This document shows positions 5,465-10,817 of a stretch of DNA of 64,000 nucleotides, in pieces. Under the pieces are notes generated by a model. The model was not told the DNA's origin and made no database searches. It saw only the letters and a program-made list of their open reading frames with translations. Each line of letters opens with the position of its first letter. The stretch's first letter is position 1. Origin of the DNA: Candidatus Bathyarchaeota archaeon (GTDB lineage Archaea > Thermoproteota > Bathyarchaeia > Bathyarchaeales > Bathycorpusculaceae); the NCBI GenBank assembly GCA_963777155.1, contig CAVZPM010000001.1:64001-128000 (forward strand). The letters are read 5' to 3'. A program made the position numbers and the translations under genes.

Positions 5465-5911
5465 ATGGATTCTTCAGCAACCGAATACATCAAAATTCTT
5501 CTAGATGTTTTGGTAGCTGCCATAATAACTGTGGTCTTATTCTTTATTGTTCGACGATCAAGAAAGGAACAAACATTCGTCGGATACACAGCGCGATCAG
5601 TTGAGGAAAAGTACATAGGATATGTTTTGCTTGTAACAGGGATAGTTGTAATAGTTGTTTCAATCTTCGAGCTAATTGTTCTCTTAGAAGGCAATTACTA
5701 CTCGCCTATACCGTTTGGCTTGACTGATCTCCAAATGACCACAGGCAACCAAACTACAGCTGTTGCTTCAGGACAGCTTTTAGGGCTAGGCTTCGGCATA
5801 TCCTTTTGGCTGTTAATCTTCGGTGCTGGCGGAAGAAAGCTGGTATCCATTGGATTGGATATGCTGAGGGGCAGAGCAATAAAGATTCGGAGAACCGTCA
5901 AAACCCGATAA
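5465..5911 (+). CDS. Three-TM membrane hypothetical protein (paralog of previous gene)
   Basis: EKYIGYVLL...GRKLVSIGLDM aligns with the 5089 product. Confidence 0.75.
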   Translation: MDSSATEYIKILLDVLVAAIITVVLFFIVRRSRKEQTFVGYTARSVEEKYIGYVLLVTGIVVIVVSIFELIVLLEGNYYSPIPFGLTDLQMTTGNQTTAVASGQLLGLGFGISFWLLIFGAGGRKLVSIGLDMLRGRAIKIRRTVKTR

Positions 5912-6308
5912 TTGAAAAGAGAAAATGGTGCGGTCGCCGGGATTTGAACCCGGGATCATTAGCTTGGAAGGCTAAAGTCCTAAACCAGACTAGACGACAA
6001 CCGCTCATGTTTTGCTGTTTAAGGCTGTTTTTGGGCTTATTTAGGTCATGGGCTTCTTTGTTTTGGCTTTGACCTATTTGACCACTTGTTGCCTTTTCAG
6101 TTGTCAGAGAAATGCCTTGTGTTTTTAATAAAGTTTTCAGAGATTCCATGCTTTGAGGATGATATTCAAACTGGGGTTTGCCCTTTAGTTGTCCTGTGTA
6201 GTGTCTTGCTCTGCCATAAGCTAGTTGTCCATTGTTTCTGATGAATAGTTGTATCAGAGAAACTTTGCCACAAACTCCACATTCAGATTTCACACACTTA
6301 AACTTCAT
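5898..6308 (-). pseudogene. Putative N-terminal fragment of a tRNA-split (SSV-type) tyrosine integrase; catalytic part absent
   Basis: CxxCG...RARHY N-terminus; ORF stays open through the entire tRNA-Gly in the same sense (...GFKSRRPHH) and stops just after it; sits at the edge of an AT-rich island. Family assignment is inference. Confidence 0.5.
5926..6004 (-). tRNA. tRNA-Gly(TCC), CCA encoded, no intron
   Basis: Reverse complement GCGGTTG...TTAGC-CTTCCAA-GCTAA...CCGGG-TTCAAAT-CCCGG-CGACCGC-A-CCA folds as a cloverleaf. Confidence 0.97.
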
Positions 6309-6341
6309 ACAGATACTCCCCTTAGACTTGGAGCTGGAGTG

Positions 6342-6384
6342 CCATAGAGCTATTTTAAGACCATTAAGAACTAGTTTTGGAGCG
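6342..6384 (+). repeat. Cassette-array repeat, right-half-only copy (6360-6384) preceded by a degenerate direct repeat (6342-6356); attI-like position
   Basis: ACCATTAAGAACTAGTTTTGGAGCG matches the right half of the 7862 and 7446 copies; CCATAGAGCTATTTT lies just upstream. Confidence 0.65.
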
Positions 6385-6823
6385 TAGGCTGTGTGAGTGA
6401 TTGTTGCTTTTTGTTCCTTAACTCAACTAGCAGTTGAGCAGTCAAAGAAGGAAAAAAATACAGAATAAAGCTACTAGTTATGAAACTTACATAAACTGAT
6501 GCTGGGAATAATGGAGACCCCGTCCAAAACAGGAAAACTGAAACAAAACCACCTATTGTTATTCCTAAAAGTATCGCTAAGGTTGTTGATTTGCTAGCCA
6601 CTAAGTTTGTTGTGTTTGCTAAGAGGTAGAAGACGCCAAAGAAAATTCCCATCACTAAAAGGGTAACAGTTATTGTTGAAAGATTGGTAAATGTGAGCAA
6701 GAAAAATGAAAGTGCAGAGGTTGTGCTTACTATTAGTTTTAAAACTGTGCATGCAATTGTTAATCCAAAAGCAACAAGGAACGTTATTAGGGCTTTTTTC
6801 ACTTGCTTTGCCTCAAATGGCAA
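6371..6823 (-). CDS. Multi-TM hypothetical membrane protein (cassette 1, inverted)
   Basis: About four hydrophobic helices; TAG stop lies inside the repeat (CTAG 6371-6374); start moved to TTG 6823 behind BRE/TATA GAAACCTTTTAT. Confidence 0.65.
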   Translation of the reverse strand: MPFEAKQVKKALITFLVAFGLTIACTVLKLIVSTTSALSFFLLTFTNLSTITVTLLVMGIFFGVFYLLANTTNLVASKSTTLAILLGITIGGFVSVFLFWTGSPLFPASVYVSFITSSFILYFFPSLTAQLLVELRNKKQQSLTQPTLQN

Positions 6824-6884
6824 TACATTTGTCTGTGGATAAAAGGTTTCACTTACTCTAATTTTGGAGTGTAACATCAGGTAT

Positions 6885-6944
6885 GCTCTAAATCTGCTAA
6901 TCAGATTAGACAGCATCCAATCTTTAAGACCTATTCTTTAGAGC
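6885..6944 (+). repeat. Cassette-array repeat, full copy A
   Basis: GCTCTAAATCTGCTAATCAGATTAGACAGCATCCAATCTTTAAGACCTATTCTTTAGAGC; ends GCTCTAAA/TTTAGAGC are complementary. Confidence 0.8.
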
Positions 6945-6999
6945 TAAAATCATCAATGTAAACAAACCTTAAATCATAAAAGAATGCAAAGGAGCTTCT

Positions 7000-7425
7000 A
7001 TGCGGTTAGATAGAAAATCCCTGTTTGCATTGGCAGTTGTTGTAATGTCTCTTATTTTTATAGTTACTATACTCTATTTTGCAATAGGCACAAAGGGCAA
7101 TCTTGTCAGCACTCATTCTCCTTATACTGGAGAGAGCAGTTATGGTCATGGCTGGAACTCAACTATTAAACTATACCTTGAAAATGTTGGAGGTGGACCA
7201 GCAACAATCTGTGACTTTGTGATTAATGGCAAGTCCTATAGCAGTTATGTTCCTGTTCCTTCAGTTAATCCATCTATAGAGAATGGGTACACCTTGTCTC
7301 TTTTTCAAAGTATTACCTTTACAATTAAACTCATTAACCAACCATCTGCGTTGTACCAAGGTGGAAATGAATTATATGTTTTAACAACAGATGGTCAGAG
7401 TCTAAGAATATACCTTGGCAGTTAA
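7000..7425 (+). CDS. Membrane-anchored, pilin/archaellin-like beta-rich surface protein (cassette 2)
   Basis: N-terminal TM, then IKLYLENVGGGPATI..FVING and LYVLTTDG, a pattern seen in archaeal pilin-like Ig folds. Confidence 0.6.
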   Translation: MRLDRKSLFALAVVVMSLIFIVTILYFAIGTKGNLVSTHSPYTGESSYGHGWNSTIKLYLENVGGGPATICDFVINGKSYSSYVPVPSVNPSIENGYTLSLFQSITFTIKLINQPSALYQGGNELYVLTTDGQSLRIYLGS

Positions 7426-7445
7426 GTACTGATGATTCAAACCTA

Positions 7446-7501
7446 CTTCTAAATCCGCTAGTCAGCAATGACGCTTCCAACCATAAAAAATAGTTTGGAG
7501 T
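7446..7501 (+). repeat. Cassette-array repeat, full copy B
   Basis: CTTCTAAATCCGCTAGTCAGCAATGACGCTTCCAACCATAAAAAATAGTTTGGAGT. Confidence 0.7.
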
Positions 7502-7546
7502 GATTGAGTGTAAAATTATTTATACCTCTTGCAATAAGTGGGGGTC

Positions 7547-7825
7547 ATGATTAAAGAAGCGTGTATAATTGTTTTAGCTTCATGCTGTATCTTTTCAGTT
7601 ATTCCCCTAGTTTCAGTATTCTTTAATGCTTTGAGTTTATTCTTACCTGTCAGTTTCCTTTTACTTGTTCTATCTTACGCTGTCTATGATGCTAAAAAAT
7701 TGATTGATAATAGAGAATACAATTTGTTGAAGGGGTTTATTCTGTTCCTAGTTATTGCTATTGTGCTATCTATGATTGCAGTCTATTTTATTCTGCCTTA
7801 TACTCTTCCTAAATTTGTACTTTAA
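7547..7825 (+). CDS. Three-TM hypothetical membrane protein (cassette 3)
   Basis: Highly hydrophobic ORF; own TATA (TTATTTATA ~7516-7524). Confidence 0.65.
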   Translation: MIKEACIIVLASCCIFSVIPLVSVFFNALSLFLPVSFLLLVLSYAVYDAKKLIDNREYNLLKGFILFLVIAIVLSMIAVYFILPYTLPKFVL

Positions 7826-7861
7826 GTTATAAAGCATAACTAATTCATTTTTACATTTTAC

Positions 7862-7922
7862 ACTCTAAATATGCTAATCAGCTTTGATAGCCTACAATCA
7901 TTAAGAGCTAGTTTTGAAGAGC
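7862..7922 (+). repeat. Cassette-array repeat, full copy C
   Basis: ACTCTAAATATGCTAATCAGCTTTGATAGCCTACAATCATTAAGAGCTAGTTTTGAAGAGC; 43/53 ungapped identity to copy A by hand count. Confidence 0.8.
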
Positions 7923-7973
7923 ATATGTAAAAATAGCAAATCTATTATACTTCAAATAGTTGAAATGAGGAAT

Positions 7974-8276
7974 ATGCACAAATTAGGTAAGATTGCAGTA
8001 GTGACTAACATTCTTCTTGCTTTATTATTTGTTTATTCCAATTTTTCACTTTGGAGTTTAGTGAATGCTGAGTATCCTTATCTAATTGCTAGTCATTGGA
8101 GTCCATTAGGAATTAGTGCTCCACACTATGTAATAACTGATGGGAGTTTTGCAATGGTCCAAACTGTCTTTTTGTATTTTAATTTCCCATTCTGGCTATT
8201 CTTTATTTCAATTGCTGTGAACTTATACTTTATACTAAAACTGAGTAAAGAAGCTAAAAGAGATAATATACGCTAA
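7974..8276 (+). CDS. Two-TM hypothetical membrane protein (cassette 4)
   Basis: GAGG RBS before ATG 7974; W-S-P-L and NFPFWLFFISIAVNLYFI segments; TAA stop falls inside repeat copy D. Confidence 0.65.
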   Translation: MHKLGKIAVVTNILLALLFVYSNFSLWSLVNAEYPYLIASHWSPLGISAPHYVITDGSFAMVQTVFLYFNFPFWLFFISIAVNLYFILKLSKEAKRDNIR

Positions 8277-8304
8277 ATATGCAATTCAACTTAGGCAGAT
8301 TCCA
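8272..8304 (+). repeat. Cassette-array repeat, left-half-only copy D (array end)
   Basis: CTAAATATGCAATTCAACTTAGGCAGATTCCA; 24/32 ungapped identity to the left half of copy A. Confidence 0.65.
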
Positions 8305-8618
8305 CATATCCATCCTATAAACAAAGGAGATTGCCTGAAGGTATGATGCTTTCCAATACCCAAGTTTCTTCAGCCCCCTTTCTTATGAGGACAAAAAACT
8401 TATCCAAAGAAGTTATCCTAAAAACTGAAGACTTGTGGGTTCTAACCATATCCCATTTGAAGTTTTCTACCTTCAGCATACTGGCGAACATGGTTTTGTT
8501 CAAAATAAATTTCAAGACCGTCCTCTTAAGCTAAGGTTCAGGATCAACATTGCTCAGAGGATAGTAGTTAAATGATTTTTTCATTTGAGAATAAATAAAG
8601 GCTTTTTTAAAAAAAGCC

Positions 8619-9077
8619 TTAAGGGAAGCCTGTTATCAGGTCATACAAGTAGGCGTCCCATTCGGTTGATTCTTTATTAAGAATCTCTAAAACTTCTTTT
8701 AGAACCCTGTGATGTTTCTTCTCATCTTCCAATATATTAAGAATAAGTTGTTTAATCTTCTTGTCCTTTACAACTTCACTAATGTCTTTTGTTTGCTTTA
8801 GCATTTGGGCTTCTTCTTTAATGTGGACTGCAAGTTCTTTTTGTCCAATATCTTTACTTTCGGTGCCAATTAGTGCACTTGAGTTCAGGTCTATGAGCAT
8901 TTGATAAGTATCTGAGTGTTTCTTGGTGTCAAGAATTAGACTATGTATAAACAGTTTTATGATTGGGTTTTTTGATGATTCATACAATGGGGTTAGTTTT
9001 TTAGCGGTTTGGTCTTCAAACTCTTTTTGTTTCTTGATTTTTAAAAGTGCGTCTTCTTCCAATATTTTCCAGGACAA
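8619..9077 (-). CDS. Ferritin-like (rubrerythrin-fold) four-helix protein
   Basis: Repeated E...DTKKH and E...DEKKHH diiron-type motifs; paralog of 46310..46795. Confidence 0.75.
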   Translation of the reverse strand: MSWKILEEDALLKIKKQKEFEDQTAKKLTPLYESSKNPIIKLFIHSLILDTKKHSDTYQMLIDLNSSALIGTESKDIGQKELAVHIKEEAQMLKQTKDISEVVKDKKIKQLILNILEDEKKHHRVLKEVLEILNKESTEWDAYLYDLITGFP

Positions 9078-9515
9078 AGAGATTCCTCATGAATGTTCAA
9101 GAACAATTTACTATTTAACTTTTTTAATAACCTCAATTCCCAATTTGGGCAAGAAGATTGTTAATTAGTATTTGTTGTCTTTTTATTTGCTCTGCAGATC
9201 TTATGTCTTAGCACCTTCGTATGGTACTTTTTCATAATTGTACTTGGCTAAATATTGTATGGCATTTTTGCTGTGTGAAAATGGGGTAAAGTAATGCTTG
9301 CACCCAGATAGGAGAAAAGTGAAGGTGGAGATAGATGCAAGCATCACACCATTTTTTCCCTAAACAATAACCAAACGCTTTCTCCACTTAACATTTTTTG
9401 AGAAGACAACTTCACTGTTTTGCAAAGAAGAAAGGGAAAAAGTTAGAGGAAAATTTTCTTTAGTTGCCTTATATAGAAATCAGATCTTACGCCTCAATCT
9501 CGTCTTGGAAACTCG

Positions 9516-9905
9516 TTAGTGGTTTGAGTTAAACAAGGGACTGGAGATTATCATGTCTGCTGTGGCTCTATTGCAGGCAGTCGGAATATTATACAAGACT
9601 GCCAATCTAAGAACTGCTTTAACATCAACGTCGTGAGGCTGAGACTCCAATGGGTCCCAAAAGAATATCAATATATCTAGTTTCTCATTGGCAATCATAG
9701 CTCCCAGCTCCATGTCTCCACCAAAAGGTCCGCTCTTTAACAGGTTTATCTTCAAATTTGTATTCTCAATTATCTTCTTGCCTGTTGTTCCTGTTGCGTA
9801 AAGGCAATAGTGGGATAGAGTTCCTTTGTTGAAATCACACCACTCAACCAAATCCTTTTTCTTGTTATCATGAGCTACAAGCGCAATGGTTTTCATAATT
9901 TTCAA
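9516..9905 (-). CDS. mgsA: Methylglyoxal synthase
   Basis: IALVAHDNKK, ATGTTG, SGPFGGD, FFWDPL..QPHDVDVKA. Confidence 0.95.
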   Translation of the reverse strand: MKIMKTIALVAHDNKKKDLVEWCDFNKGTLSHYCLYATGTTGKKIIENTNLKINLLKSGPFGGDMELGAMIANEKLDILIFFWDPLESQPHDVDVKAVLRLAVLYNIPTACNRATADMIISSPLFNSNH

Positions 9906-10241
9906 TTCCAGTGTGTTTTAAACCAACACAAATCTTAATGACGCGTCGAATAAAAACATGTATTGAATTTGTTTTCAAGGTTATTCCAAGAACTGAAAAT
10001 ATGCCTTAAAATTCTCTGAACACTTGAGTTCACTAAATTATTTGGAGCTAGAAAAGCATTGAATACAGTTAAGACATGGTTGAGAATGATTAGAATTAGT
10101 GCTGTTTTCTTAGTTACTTCTTACCTTTGCTACCTTTTCTTTGTTCACTGAATCAAGCGATTTCCCGGAATTACCTATCTCATGATGCAAAAACTTAAAA
10201 CTCATAATATATAGCATATTGAGTAAGGGAATCAAAAAGAA

Positions 10242-10418
10242 ATGATGAAGCAAATAGTCACCATAAGTTATTTTGTTTTGGCCGTTCTATTAGCCGCAAT
10301 TGCATTTAGAGGCTTTATGAGTGACCTTCTTGTTGCATTGACAATAGGGGTTATCGTTTTCATAGTTGTTATAATTGTTGGTTATTACTTTACTAAAAAA
10401 TTATTAGATTCAGATTAG
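10242..10418 (+). CDS. Small two-TM membrane protein (58 aa, below ORF-track cutoff)
   Basis: MMKQIVTISYFVLAVLLAAIAFRGFMSDLLVALTIGVIVFIVVIIVGYYFTKKLLDSD; TATA-like sequence upstream. Confidence 0.5.
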   Translation: MMKQIVTISYFVLAVLLAAIAFRGFMSDLLVALTIGVIVFIVVIIVGYYFTKKLLDSD

Positions 10419-10535
10419 TTCCTATAACCTTTAATTTGCACTAACTTGAAAAATTATCCGTGAGTTTCTTGTTTATAAGATGGAAGAGTATATCTTGCTG
10501 AAGGTTTACGCTTATTGAATAGTTAGGTTAGAAAG

Positions 10536-10817
10536 ATGAGTTCAGGAAAAGAGAGAAAAAAAATTCCCGGTAGCAGAATGAAAATCCTAACTAAAGACGC
10601 CAAACAGATGGTAAACGGGCCATATTATTGTCCAAAATGCAGAAAGGAACTGCTTCAGATTTGTGCTGACCTAAAAAAGAAAGAGGTTTATGCAATCTGC
10701 AAATGTGGACTTGAGTGGCCTCTGACTTATGCGCCTGTTTTTCAACCTATCGATTACTACAACAAATTCCGTGATGCATGGAAAAAACAGAGTTACGGTA
10801 TAATCAAGCAAAAATAA
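10536..10817 (+). CDS. Elf1-like zinc-ribbon protein (transcription elongation factor Elf1 family)
   Basis: Basic N-terminus, CPKC...CKCG, and QPIDYYNKFRD resembling the Elf1 EPIDVYSDWID motif. Confidence 0.6.
   Translation: MSSGKERKKIPGSRMKILTKDAKQMVNGPYYCPKCRKELLQICADLKKKEVYAICKCGLEWPLTYAPVFQPIDYYNKFRDAWKKQSYGIIKQK

Follow-up and report, generated by a model that had tools for sequence, protein, structure and literature searches.

What kind of genetic system sets short, unrelated genes one at a time between copies of a conserved sequence of some 60 bp? The question is raised by a locus in a 64,000-nucleotide stretch of DNA from a Candidatus Bathyarchaeota archaeon (assembly GCA_963777155.1, contig CAVZPM010000001.1, positions 64,001 to 128,000), hereafter referred to as the window and numbered from its first letter, where a prediction made from the letters alone had placed an integron-like array of four gene cassettes at 6342–8304. 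We find that the array is genuine and confined to a family of elements that integrate at tRNA genes in one Bathyarchaeia genus. In the explanation that we favor, the region from 6005 to approximately 8374 would be what is left of a small integrative element whose integrase is of the SSV (“suicidal”) type. Insertion of the element into tRNA-Gly(TCC) would have cut the integrase gene in two, with only the N-terminal half surviving in the window. The cargo of the element would consist of self-contained single-gene units arranged head to tail, mostly encoding small membrane proteins in either orientation and each apparently with its own promoter. Four points are established: the identity of the integrase, the confinement of the repeat to loci of this kind, cassette turnover, and the clustering of breakpoints. 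The mechanism of exchange is only proposed.

Repeat Copies and Cassette Genes in the Window

Three full copies of the repeat lie in the window, all on the plus strand: copy A at 6883–6945, copy B, the most diverged, at 7447–7503, and copy C at 7862–7921 (59.7, 48, and 65.7 bits, respectively, with the covariance model described below). The two ends of the array carry one half each, also on the plus strand, with the 3' half alone (CCAT|TAAGAACTAGTTTTGGAGCG) at 6360–6384, referred to as R0, and the 5' half alone at 8268–8304, referred to as RD. A search of the window for repeats aligned 6886–6938 with 7863–7915 at 43 of 53 identical nucleotides (81%) and returned partial copies at 6362–6382 (3' part) and 8267–8292 (5' part), which confirms the original prediction of three full repeats and of 43/53 identity between A and C. 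The 5' motif occurs three times in the 64-kb window where 0.03 occurrences are expected and the 3' motif twice where 0.00 are expected; for both motifs all 100 shuffles stayed below the observed count.

A profile of the three full copies was run with nhmmer against the host genome (39 contigs, 2.29 Mb, in an assembly that is 90.6% complete). The full copies were recovered at 6884–6945 (E 8.7e-15), 7446–7503 (E 2.7e-12) and 7861–7921 (E 4.9e-15), the two half copies ranked next (8271–8304, E 2.4; 6360–6379, E 3.7), and no further copy elsewhere in the 39 contigs scored better than E 6. The repeat is confined to the array locus within the host genome. Since nhmmer finds this single locus only, a genome-wide repeat such as a miniature inverted-repeat transposable element is ruled out, as is a regulator site spread over the genome upstream of ordinary genes, which had been named as one outcome that would speak against the prediction.

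Each repeat interval of the window holds a single open reading frame (ORF) in the ORF list. Cassette 1 (6371–6916, minus strand, probable start ATG 6877) is an inverted gene of 181 aa; cassette 2 (7000–7425, plus strand) encodes 141 aa with an N-terminal helix and a beta-rich domain; cassette 3 (7538–7825, plus strand, probable start ATG 7547) encodes 95 aa; and cassette 4 (7914–8276, plus strand, probable start ATG 7974) encodes 120 aa and has its stop within RD. Helix numbers of approximately 5, 1, 3, and 2 for cassettes 1–4 come from a crude hydrophobicity count. The four proteins form separate BLASTP clusters at E < 1e-6, in agreement with the expected pattern of one unrelated small gene per interval with the first inverted, and the stops at 6371–6373 (minus strand) and 8274–8276 do lie inside the half repeats. 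Scans with Pfam, PHROGs, NCBIfam, and PADLOC gave no family for the cassettes beyond zinc ribbons (DUF1801 was found in a flanking gene), and Atlas neighbors of the cassettes, those of cassette 2 included, were Bathyarchaeota hypothetical proteins only, a pilin lead at 0.86 being sub-threshold. None of the four window proteins matched a Pfam, PHROGs, or PADLOC family. The cassette proteins are small membrane or zinc-ribbon ORFans. As read from the sequence, AT-rich TATA-like boxes lie ~10–30 nt after the repeat and 22–28 nt before the start codons of three window units; these promoter-like boxes downstream of the repeat are not conserved.

A Split Integrase at tRNA-Gly(TCC)

The left end of the array leads directly into an ORF on the minus strand (5898–6308) that overlaps a gene for tRNA-Gly(TCC) (5926–6004, minus strand; found by ARAGORN and scoring 64.4 bits with the Rfam tRNA model), the integration target (attL). 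The first 101 residues of the ORF, which contain a zinc-ribbon-like Cys cluster, are 76% identical over 98% of their length to the N-terminus of P0001, an unsplit 395-aa metagenomic protein encoded on a 29-kb contig and carrying PF16795 (archaeal phage, SSV-type integrase domain); the window ORF alone has no Pfam or NCBIfam match. The two proteins match up to and including ...RLVWFRTLAFQA, a stretch translated from the 5' part of the tRNA as far as the anticodon loop. Past this region P0001 continues as integrase and the window continues as tRNA, with the ORF running through the tRNA gene to a chance stop. An SSV-type integrase has its attachment site inside its own gene, and integration cuts this gene into two. 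To judge from this comparison, the ORF adjoining the array is the N-terminal half, hereafter Int(N), of a “suicidal” integrase of the SSV type, whose gene was cut when the element entered tRNA-Gly(TCC) because the attachment site sits within it.

Relatives of the same genus show the remaining parts of such elements. A 334-aa ORF of G055 representing the C-terminal half, Int(C), matches PF16795 (E 1.9e-10, 41.3 bits against a cut-off of 27), G089 has a 47-bp copy of the tRNA 5' part (94% identical) followed by an in-frame integrase fragment, and G050 has an apparently complete element of ~2.9 kb with tRNA-Arg, Int(N), two cargo genes, and Int(C). Relatives of Int(C) occur in 31 of 81 genomes of the genus and are missing from the host, G060, and G096; tblastn with four Int(C) proteins did not find it in the host genome. 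An ORF at 8315–8515 (minus strand) was considered as an Int(C) remnant and rejected (best E 0.99 in tblastn with five Int(C) or full-length proteins). Elements of this type are expected to carry a direct repeat of part of the tRNA at their far end. A second copy of the tRNA, seen in G089 and G021, was not found nearby in the window, and the far end of the window element seems to have been lost. As only the Int(N) half remains, the element could not excise by itself, and the array in the host genome would currently be frozen. No unsplit element was found among viral contigs, and the one metagenome match for it (L060, 37% identical) comes without the repeat.

No match to PF00589 was found in the host genome at E ≤ 0.01, where the control matched in 14 of 14 reference genomes, nor were PF16795, PF00239, or PF01797 matched. 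The host assembly is without a detected tyrosine recombinase, archaeal integrase, serine recombinase, or Y1 transposase, and the earlier remark that no IntI is visible in the window extends to the genome. We also observe that the lack of a PF00589 match leaves the host without a detected Xer-like protein, which is unusual for an archaeon unless it lies in an assembly gap.

The ratio of nonsynonymous to synonymous substitution rates (dN/dS) for Int(N) is 0.16–0.34 against G060 and G096, and purifying selection in genomes that are without Int(C) suggests that Int(N) has a job of its own. The ~145 bp upstream of tRNA-Gly (6005–6150), which encode the C-terminal part of Int(N), are 82–90% identical across many species of the genus and were probably kept because the inserted element now supplies the 5' part of tRNA-Gly and its promoter.

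Distribution of the Repeat Among Relatives

With a sequence-only covariance model built from 7 copies we searched 120 genomes of the host's Bathyarchaeia genus (E ≤ 0.001) and found matches in 29, with 1–3 in each. Among 14 repeat loci that were fetched, ARAGORN placed a tRNA gene within the stretch in 10 (Arg-CCT, Arg-TCT, Gly, Thr/Leu) and tblastn found Int(N) in 6, with ORF clustering adding Int(N) members in further loci. The fetched matches adjoin tRNA genes and/or integrase N-halves, and the expectation that the arrays would be linked to one recombinase family has largely held, the family being that of SSV-type integrases. One locus, G077, has a different type of N-half and yet the 3' half near int, one full repeat, and Int(C) ~3 kb away. 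In a wider search of one genome from each of 185,579 species, 12 contigs contain the exact 3'-half pattern, 11 of them titled Bathyarchaeota or Bathyarchaeia and 1 “uncultured archaeon”; no viral contig contains it. Int(C) is found in 6 of 21 genomes with the repeat and 25 of 60 without it by our tally. At a further locus, L046 (G132:C4), a 181-aa ORF ~2 kb from the array ends beside a tRNA-like fragment and has a motif that we take to resemble box I of ordinary tyrosine recombinases; this neighborhood may serve a second type of integrase.

From these loci 23 full copies were collected, leaving aside matches that cover <45 model positions. They align over ~60 columns to a single consensus whose best-conserved columns are AAAT.TGC, TCA, GACAGC, CAAyCAT-TAAGAAC, and TTTTGGAGCG, and a conserved run of four T residues terminates the repeat. 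Within an array all repeats share one orientation regardless of the orientation of the genes. The window copies bear a likeness to the anticodon loop of tRNA-Gly (AGC-TTCCAA-YC), for which the repeat was considered as a copy of the tRNA attachment site. We reject this origin as chance likeness: the tRNA-like stretch is the least conserved part of the 23 copies and does not track the tRNA type at Arg loci.

The 3' half also lies upstream of int in elements without an array, namely G050 (E 5.8e-5) and, by reading, G089, and every element examined has it immediately upstream of the int promoter region. This is what one would expect of a purely cis-regulatory or insulating module, a terminator for the preceding gene plus an operator shortly before the following promoter, bound by an element protein (perhaps Int(N) or the zinc-ribbon cassette F3), with the variability of the arrays left to ordinary insertions, deletions, and tandem integrations and no special role of the repeat in recombination. 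The terminal T run, the TATA-like boxes read downstream of repeats, and the purifying selection on Int(N) where Int(C) is absent would all fit such a module. Sixty conserved bases in five blocks are long for an operator, though, and no stem-loop was found. Moreover, units on the minus strand have the same halves on either side, oriented as they are around plus-strand units, so that promoters and gene ends stand in no constant spatial relation to the repeat. Taken with the breakpoints described next, which cluster in the repeat as would not be expected for a passive site, this makes a purely regulatory role quite improbable in our view.

Array Ends, Breakpoints and the Structure of a Unit

The two half repeats show where the array begins and ends. 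In most of nine loci compared, the R0 region follows a conserved sequence found upstream of int as far as ...GACCAT and is identical to the repeat from TAAGAAC on. The conserved sequence, X-left (6309–6359), recurs in 8 further loci and is the probable promoter region of int (minus strand). RD equals the repeat up to ...CAAYCAT and then passes into a second conserved sequence (ACATCCTATAAACAAAGGAGATT). This Y-right region (8305–8374; ACATCC-TATAAACAAAGGAGATTGC...) terminates arrays at several tRNA loci: an RD-type end is shared by the window, four loci found by BLAST (L033, L058, L016, and L020), and, by alignment, G060, where Y-right follows the last cassette, and these ends lie at tRNA-Gly, tRNA-Arg, tRNA-Pro, and one undetermined site.

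Three more switches of partner sequence fall at or within ~12 nt of CAT|TAAG, upstream of cassette 2 in G078, upstream of cassette 3 in G012a, and downstream of F4 in the comparison of L053 with L058. Most junction breakpoints are placed by the alignments at one point of the repeat, CAT|TAAG, which fits cassette exchange at the repeat. Because the breakpoints cluster there, the unit can be delimited as TAAGAAC...GGAGCG, then promoter and gene in either orientation, then GCTCTAAAT...CAAYCAT, and what appears as a 60-bp repeat is, so read, the end of one unit meeting the start of the next. Each unit would start with a conserved element of ~25 bp (TAAGAACTAnTTTTGGAGCG) and end with one of ~37 bp (GCTCTAAATATGC...GACAGC..CAAYCAT); abutting units would create the repeat, and the array ends would carry one half only. 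Recombination at these junctions, mostly at CAT|TAAG, would let related elements gain, lose, and swap units.

Turnover and Probable Exchange of Cassettes

To compare gene content, ORFs of 45 aa or longer were clustered from the surroundings of the repeats at 29 loci (five of which are the same contigs fetched twice); L001–L015, L044, and L060 stood outside this set, and ORFs nested in longer ones were dropped. The left flank, with cyclophilin genes, tRNA-Gly, and the ~145 bp upstream of it, is syntenic in many species, and on the right the shared flank begins again at ~10175–10523 with a small membrane protein and an Elf1-like zinc-ribbon gene (10536–10817, plus strand; PF05129, E 7.6e-9) that marks it in most relatives, and the content between the flanks is variable.

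The closest relative, G078, whose flank is 92% identical, lacks cassette 1 at the syntenic locus and has the orthologue of cassette 2 (88% nucleotide identity, dN/dS 0.33) directly after R0. In G096 a different gene of 63 aa (family F4) is followed by a full repeat and then by cassette 3 (83% nucleotide identity, dN/dS 0.18), which also recurs in G012 (79%) and has different neighbors in each genome. G060 has an Int(N) that is 91% identical to that of the window and five other units, with 0 of the 4 window genes. In G059 (L032, G059:C5, 4790–4900) a nearly empty unit stands beside Int(N), formed by a 3' half and a 5' half with 35 nt between them, the latter half being joined to a Y-right-type end. 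It is clear from G078, G096, G060, and others that relatives carry the same repeat with variable gene content and order, as the original prediction had proposed, and the opposite outcome of the same four genes in fixed order is not seen in these three genomes.

Small families recur across the loci, among others F3 (zinc ribbon) and the membrane proteins F4, F5, F6, F7, F8, F11, and F14; cassette 4 belongs to F7, found in 4 loci at 34–46% identity. The dN/dS is below 1 in all 60 computable cassette pairs (0.07–0.89; 5 further pairs are saturated), and the cassettes are real genes on this account. Their similarity does not follow that of the integrase. Int(N) is 87% identical between G096 and G060 and F4 only 60%, with F4 first in the array of G096 and last in that of G060; L058 and L016 share F8 at 76% and Int(N) at 32%, whereas L051 and L058 share Int(N) at 89% and F8 at 37%; and F4 and F27 stand in opposite order in G060 and L053. 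Cassette similarity is discordant with integrase similarity, which argues for true exchange. One candidate for a clean cassette replacement, L051 against L053, was rejected, as the loci are 94% identical throughout and the “different” genes result from calling different ORFs on opposite strands.

Two arrays beside tRNA-Arg(CCT) with partly different cassettes, L051 (G094:C17) and L058 (G094:C10), come from one metagenome-assembled genome, with one of them on a 9.6-kb contig. They may represent two strains binned together, i.e., cassette variation at the population level. Among public sequencing runs no RNA run was matched and the best DNA run contains 0.48 of the sampled words. When Logan contigs of four runs were compared with the window at 90% likeness, a soil run gave the joints 6383>6881, 6867>7507, and 7899>8274 (one contig each, depth 5–6, sides of 21–48 letters), which may stem from relatives or from the repeats and are a hint of alternative arrangements at most.

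The variable island extends beyond the array. A rubrerythrin/ferritin-like gene (8619–9077, minus strand) and a gene resembling methylglyoxal synthase (MGS-like; 9516–9905, minus strand) lie within it and are absent from this locus in G060 and G078; the former has counterparts at 71–82% identity in G022, G004, G016, and G009. Between the arrays and the shared right flank, an isolated stretch of ~150 bp (9289–9437) is 81–86% conserved in G060 and G078, has no Rfam match, and is where several public contigs end (at 9433).

Folding of the Repeat

The repeats had been described as imperfect palindromes, which would be expected of attC sites, and this description did not survive analysis. RNAalifold gives 0 consensus base pairs for 7 copies. 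Folds of the single DNA strands have low stability (−3.5 to −9 kcal/mol) and for the most part do not surpass those of shuffled sequences; z reaches −2 or lower in only 2 of 10 folds, both being strands of copy A. The 8-bp terminal inverted repeat GCTCTAAA...TTTGGAGC is complementary at 7 of 8 positions in the consensus, is altered on one side in several of the 23 copies, and shows no compensatory change in any of them. An RNA gene is likewise ruled out, with no consensus fold and no Rfam match at meaningful E in 5800–9600 apart from the tRNA.

These results bear directly on the idea that the locus is the remnant of an ordinary integron (CALIN, a cluster of attC sites lacking an integron integrase) with unusual attC sites. 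One gene per unit, a repeat of attC-like length, and the 7/8 complementary termini would suit it. Against this, there is no consensus fold, stable single-strand hairpin, or compensatory change, the repeats are uniform in sequence and length, unlike attC sites, which vary between cassettes, the host genome has no PF00589 protein, and the array is tied to the stump of an SSV-type integrase at a tRNA gene. Published archaeal integrons have canonical folded attC sites and IntI, according to the available part of one study (10.1101/2022.02.06.479319). We consider an ordinary integron remnant close to refuted.

Homology or Site-Specific Recombination

With the junctions and the turnover in hand, the remaining matter is how units move. 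We propose that an encounter between a resident array and a related incoming element would lead to a swap of cassettes at the conserved junctions, chiefly by way of short conserved homology rather than by a dedicated cassette recombinase, and we hold this to be evenly balanced between right and wrong. Several observations weigh against it. Homologous exchange alone cannot explain the first concatenation of units or the half sites at array ends, and conservation of the 60 bp beyond synonymous saturation shows a sequence-specific function, which shuffling driven by homology does not supply. The break downstream of cassette 2 in G078 falls in the middle of the 5' half and not at CAT|TAAG, and the arrays of G096 and G012a end without any repeat. 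An uninterrupted site joining X-left to Y-right is found in 0 of 120 genomes with a strict exact pattern, and no circle, empty site, or recent event is seen in the assembled data. Half repeats next to a shared cassette family resemble each other no more than others do (mean identity of 3' halves 0.52, background 0.58, 5 pairs; of 5' halves 0.65, background 0.66, 4 pairs), with a co-travelling 5' half seen in one lineage. Finally, the cassettes common to the window and G078, and to the window and G096, diverge about as much as the flanks, so that an older array from which different units were lost could account for some of the variation.

The half sites and the conservation are points in favor of a rival explanation, an integron-like site-specific system in which a recombinase acting in trans would insert and excise circular single-gene cassettes that carry one full site. 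The site would have a 33-bp core, AGCTTCCAAYCAT-TAAGAAC-TAnTTTTGGAGCG, with imperfectly inverted arms around a 7-bp overlap, R0 would be attI-like, and the enzyme would be the full-length SSV-type integrase of an active sister element or another tyrosine recombinase. Half sites at the ends with full sites inside are the pattern left by circle insertion with a crossover within the site, at least five independent junction comparisons break at CAT|TAAG, and TAAGAAC with its flanks forms the best-conserved columns of the 23 copies. The single repeat orientation per array whatever the gene orientation, the discordance of cassette and integrase similarity, the nearly empty unit of G059, and the conservation beyond synonymous saturation also point this way.

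The same system meets several difficulties. The dyad is our own reading and is weak (about 8 of 12 positions), and the repeat is unlike the tRNA site of this integrase family, with a center that is constant across tRNA types (Gly, Arg-CCT, and Arg-TCT). No recombinase of the four families was detected in the host genome, Int(C) is not commoner in genomes with the repeat, and the arrays are short, with at most ~5 units. The failure of the strict pattern to find an empty site in the 120 genomes, the off-center breakpoint of G078, and the lack of co-travel of repeat halves with cassettes in 9 informative pairs, one lineage apart, count here as well. On balance we regard a site-specific system as possible but doubtful. 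Its fullest form, an archaeal counterpart of the integron that would have arisen independently, with an unfolded double-stranded site of 60 bp, crossover at CAT|TAAG, an attI-like half site, a recombinase in trans, and the Int(N) stump possibly as a site-binding or regulatory subunit, is in our estimate unlikely.

Implications

For many uncultured archaea, small integrated elements make up the bulk of the mobile DNA known so far, and the way in which they acquire their many ORFan genes is unclear. The arrays suggest complete one-gene units with a conserved junction that are traded between element lineages at different tRNA genes. If exchange is driven by homology, as we favor, the idea of “regulatory cassette shuffling” in phages would come to include archaeal elements; if a site-specific process is at work, the integron principle would have been invented a second time, independently. 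In either case an element immobilized by its own integration may remain a living, changing gene island, and the selection on its leftover integrase half hints at a second function of the domain. In practical terms, the 3' half offers a short and specific DNA signature for locating such arrays in Bathyarchaeia metagenomes.

Comparison With Known Systems

No description of repeat-bounded single-gene cargo in archaeal elements or in Bathyarchaeota was found in the literature searched; the Bathyarchaeia virus paper, in its available part, mentions integrases and nothing resembling this array (PMC10848311). Within that literature, a modular array architecture of this kind is undescribed for archaeal elements, within a kind of integrated element that is itself known.

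That kind is the SSV-type element. A split SSV1-like integrase is described for an integrated Nitrososphaera element, along with cryptic elements as small as 2.6 kb, in the portion of the report considered (PMC6563490). The loci studied here share with such elements the attachment site within the integrase ORF and the split into Int(N) and Int(C) at a tRNA gene (both halves in G089 and G050, Int(N) alone in the window). The catalytic domain PF16795 is present in the family (P0001 and the Int(C) of G055), with no catalytic half in the host genome, and a trapped element decays in the same manner, leaving an Int(N) stump beside the tRNA. They differ in having a host among the Bathyarchaeia, an N-terminal domain with a Cys cluster, insertion at the 5' part of the tRNA, and a cargo of repeat-bounded single-gene units.

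Likeness to integrons is of another order. An integron is defined by IntI (PF00589 with an extra domain) next to the array and by attC sites that form single-strand hairpins (R''/L'' with L'/R') and differ between cassettes. The array resembles one in having one gene per unit, sites of ~60 bp in one orientation, content that varies between relatives, and a special half-like site beside an integrase gene and its divergent promoter. It differs in being without IntI, folded attC sites, or the RYYYAAC/GTTRRRY boxes; its sites are uniform rather than cassette-specific, its units apparently have their own promoters and stand in either orientation, and the neighboring integrase is of another family and split. 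The archaeal integrons reported so far have folded canonical attC sites and an IntI with a special domain, as far as the available part of the paper goes (10.1101/2022.02.06.479319). The array fails every testable feature of an integron and is integron-like in layout only; from the original claim of integron architecture the analogy of layout and the variable content stand, while the repeats are no palindromes and the neighboring “recombinase” is a catalytically dead Int(N) stump.

The closest parallel is the modular shuffling mediated by PeSL motifs, each a promoter combined with a stem-loop terminator, in the hyperplastic regions of T4-type phages. There, in the part of the study available, a conserved intergenic motif of ~50–70 bp lies between small ORFans, the places where relatives differ by inserted, deleted, or replaced genes coincide with the motifs, no dedicated recombinase takes part, and mini-circles were shown (PMC2839356). 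The array repeat is without a stem-loop, its promoter seems to lie outside the repeat, and the half motifs at the array ends are not a feature of PeSL regions. Insertions, deletions, and replacements of array genes between relatives map to the repeat in the same way, and by this analogy the array most likely works like PeSL shuffling.

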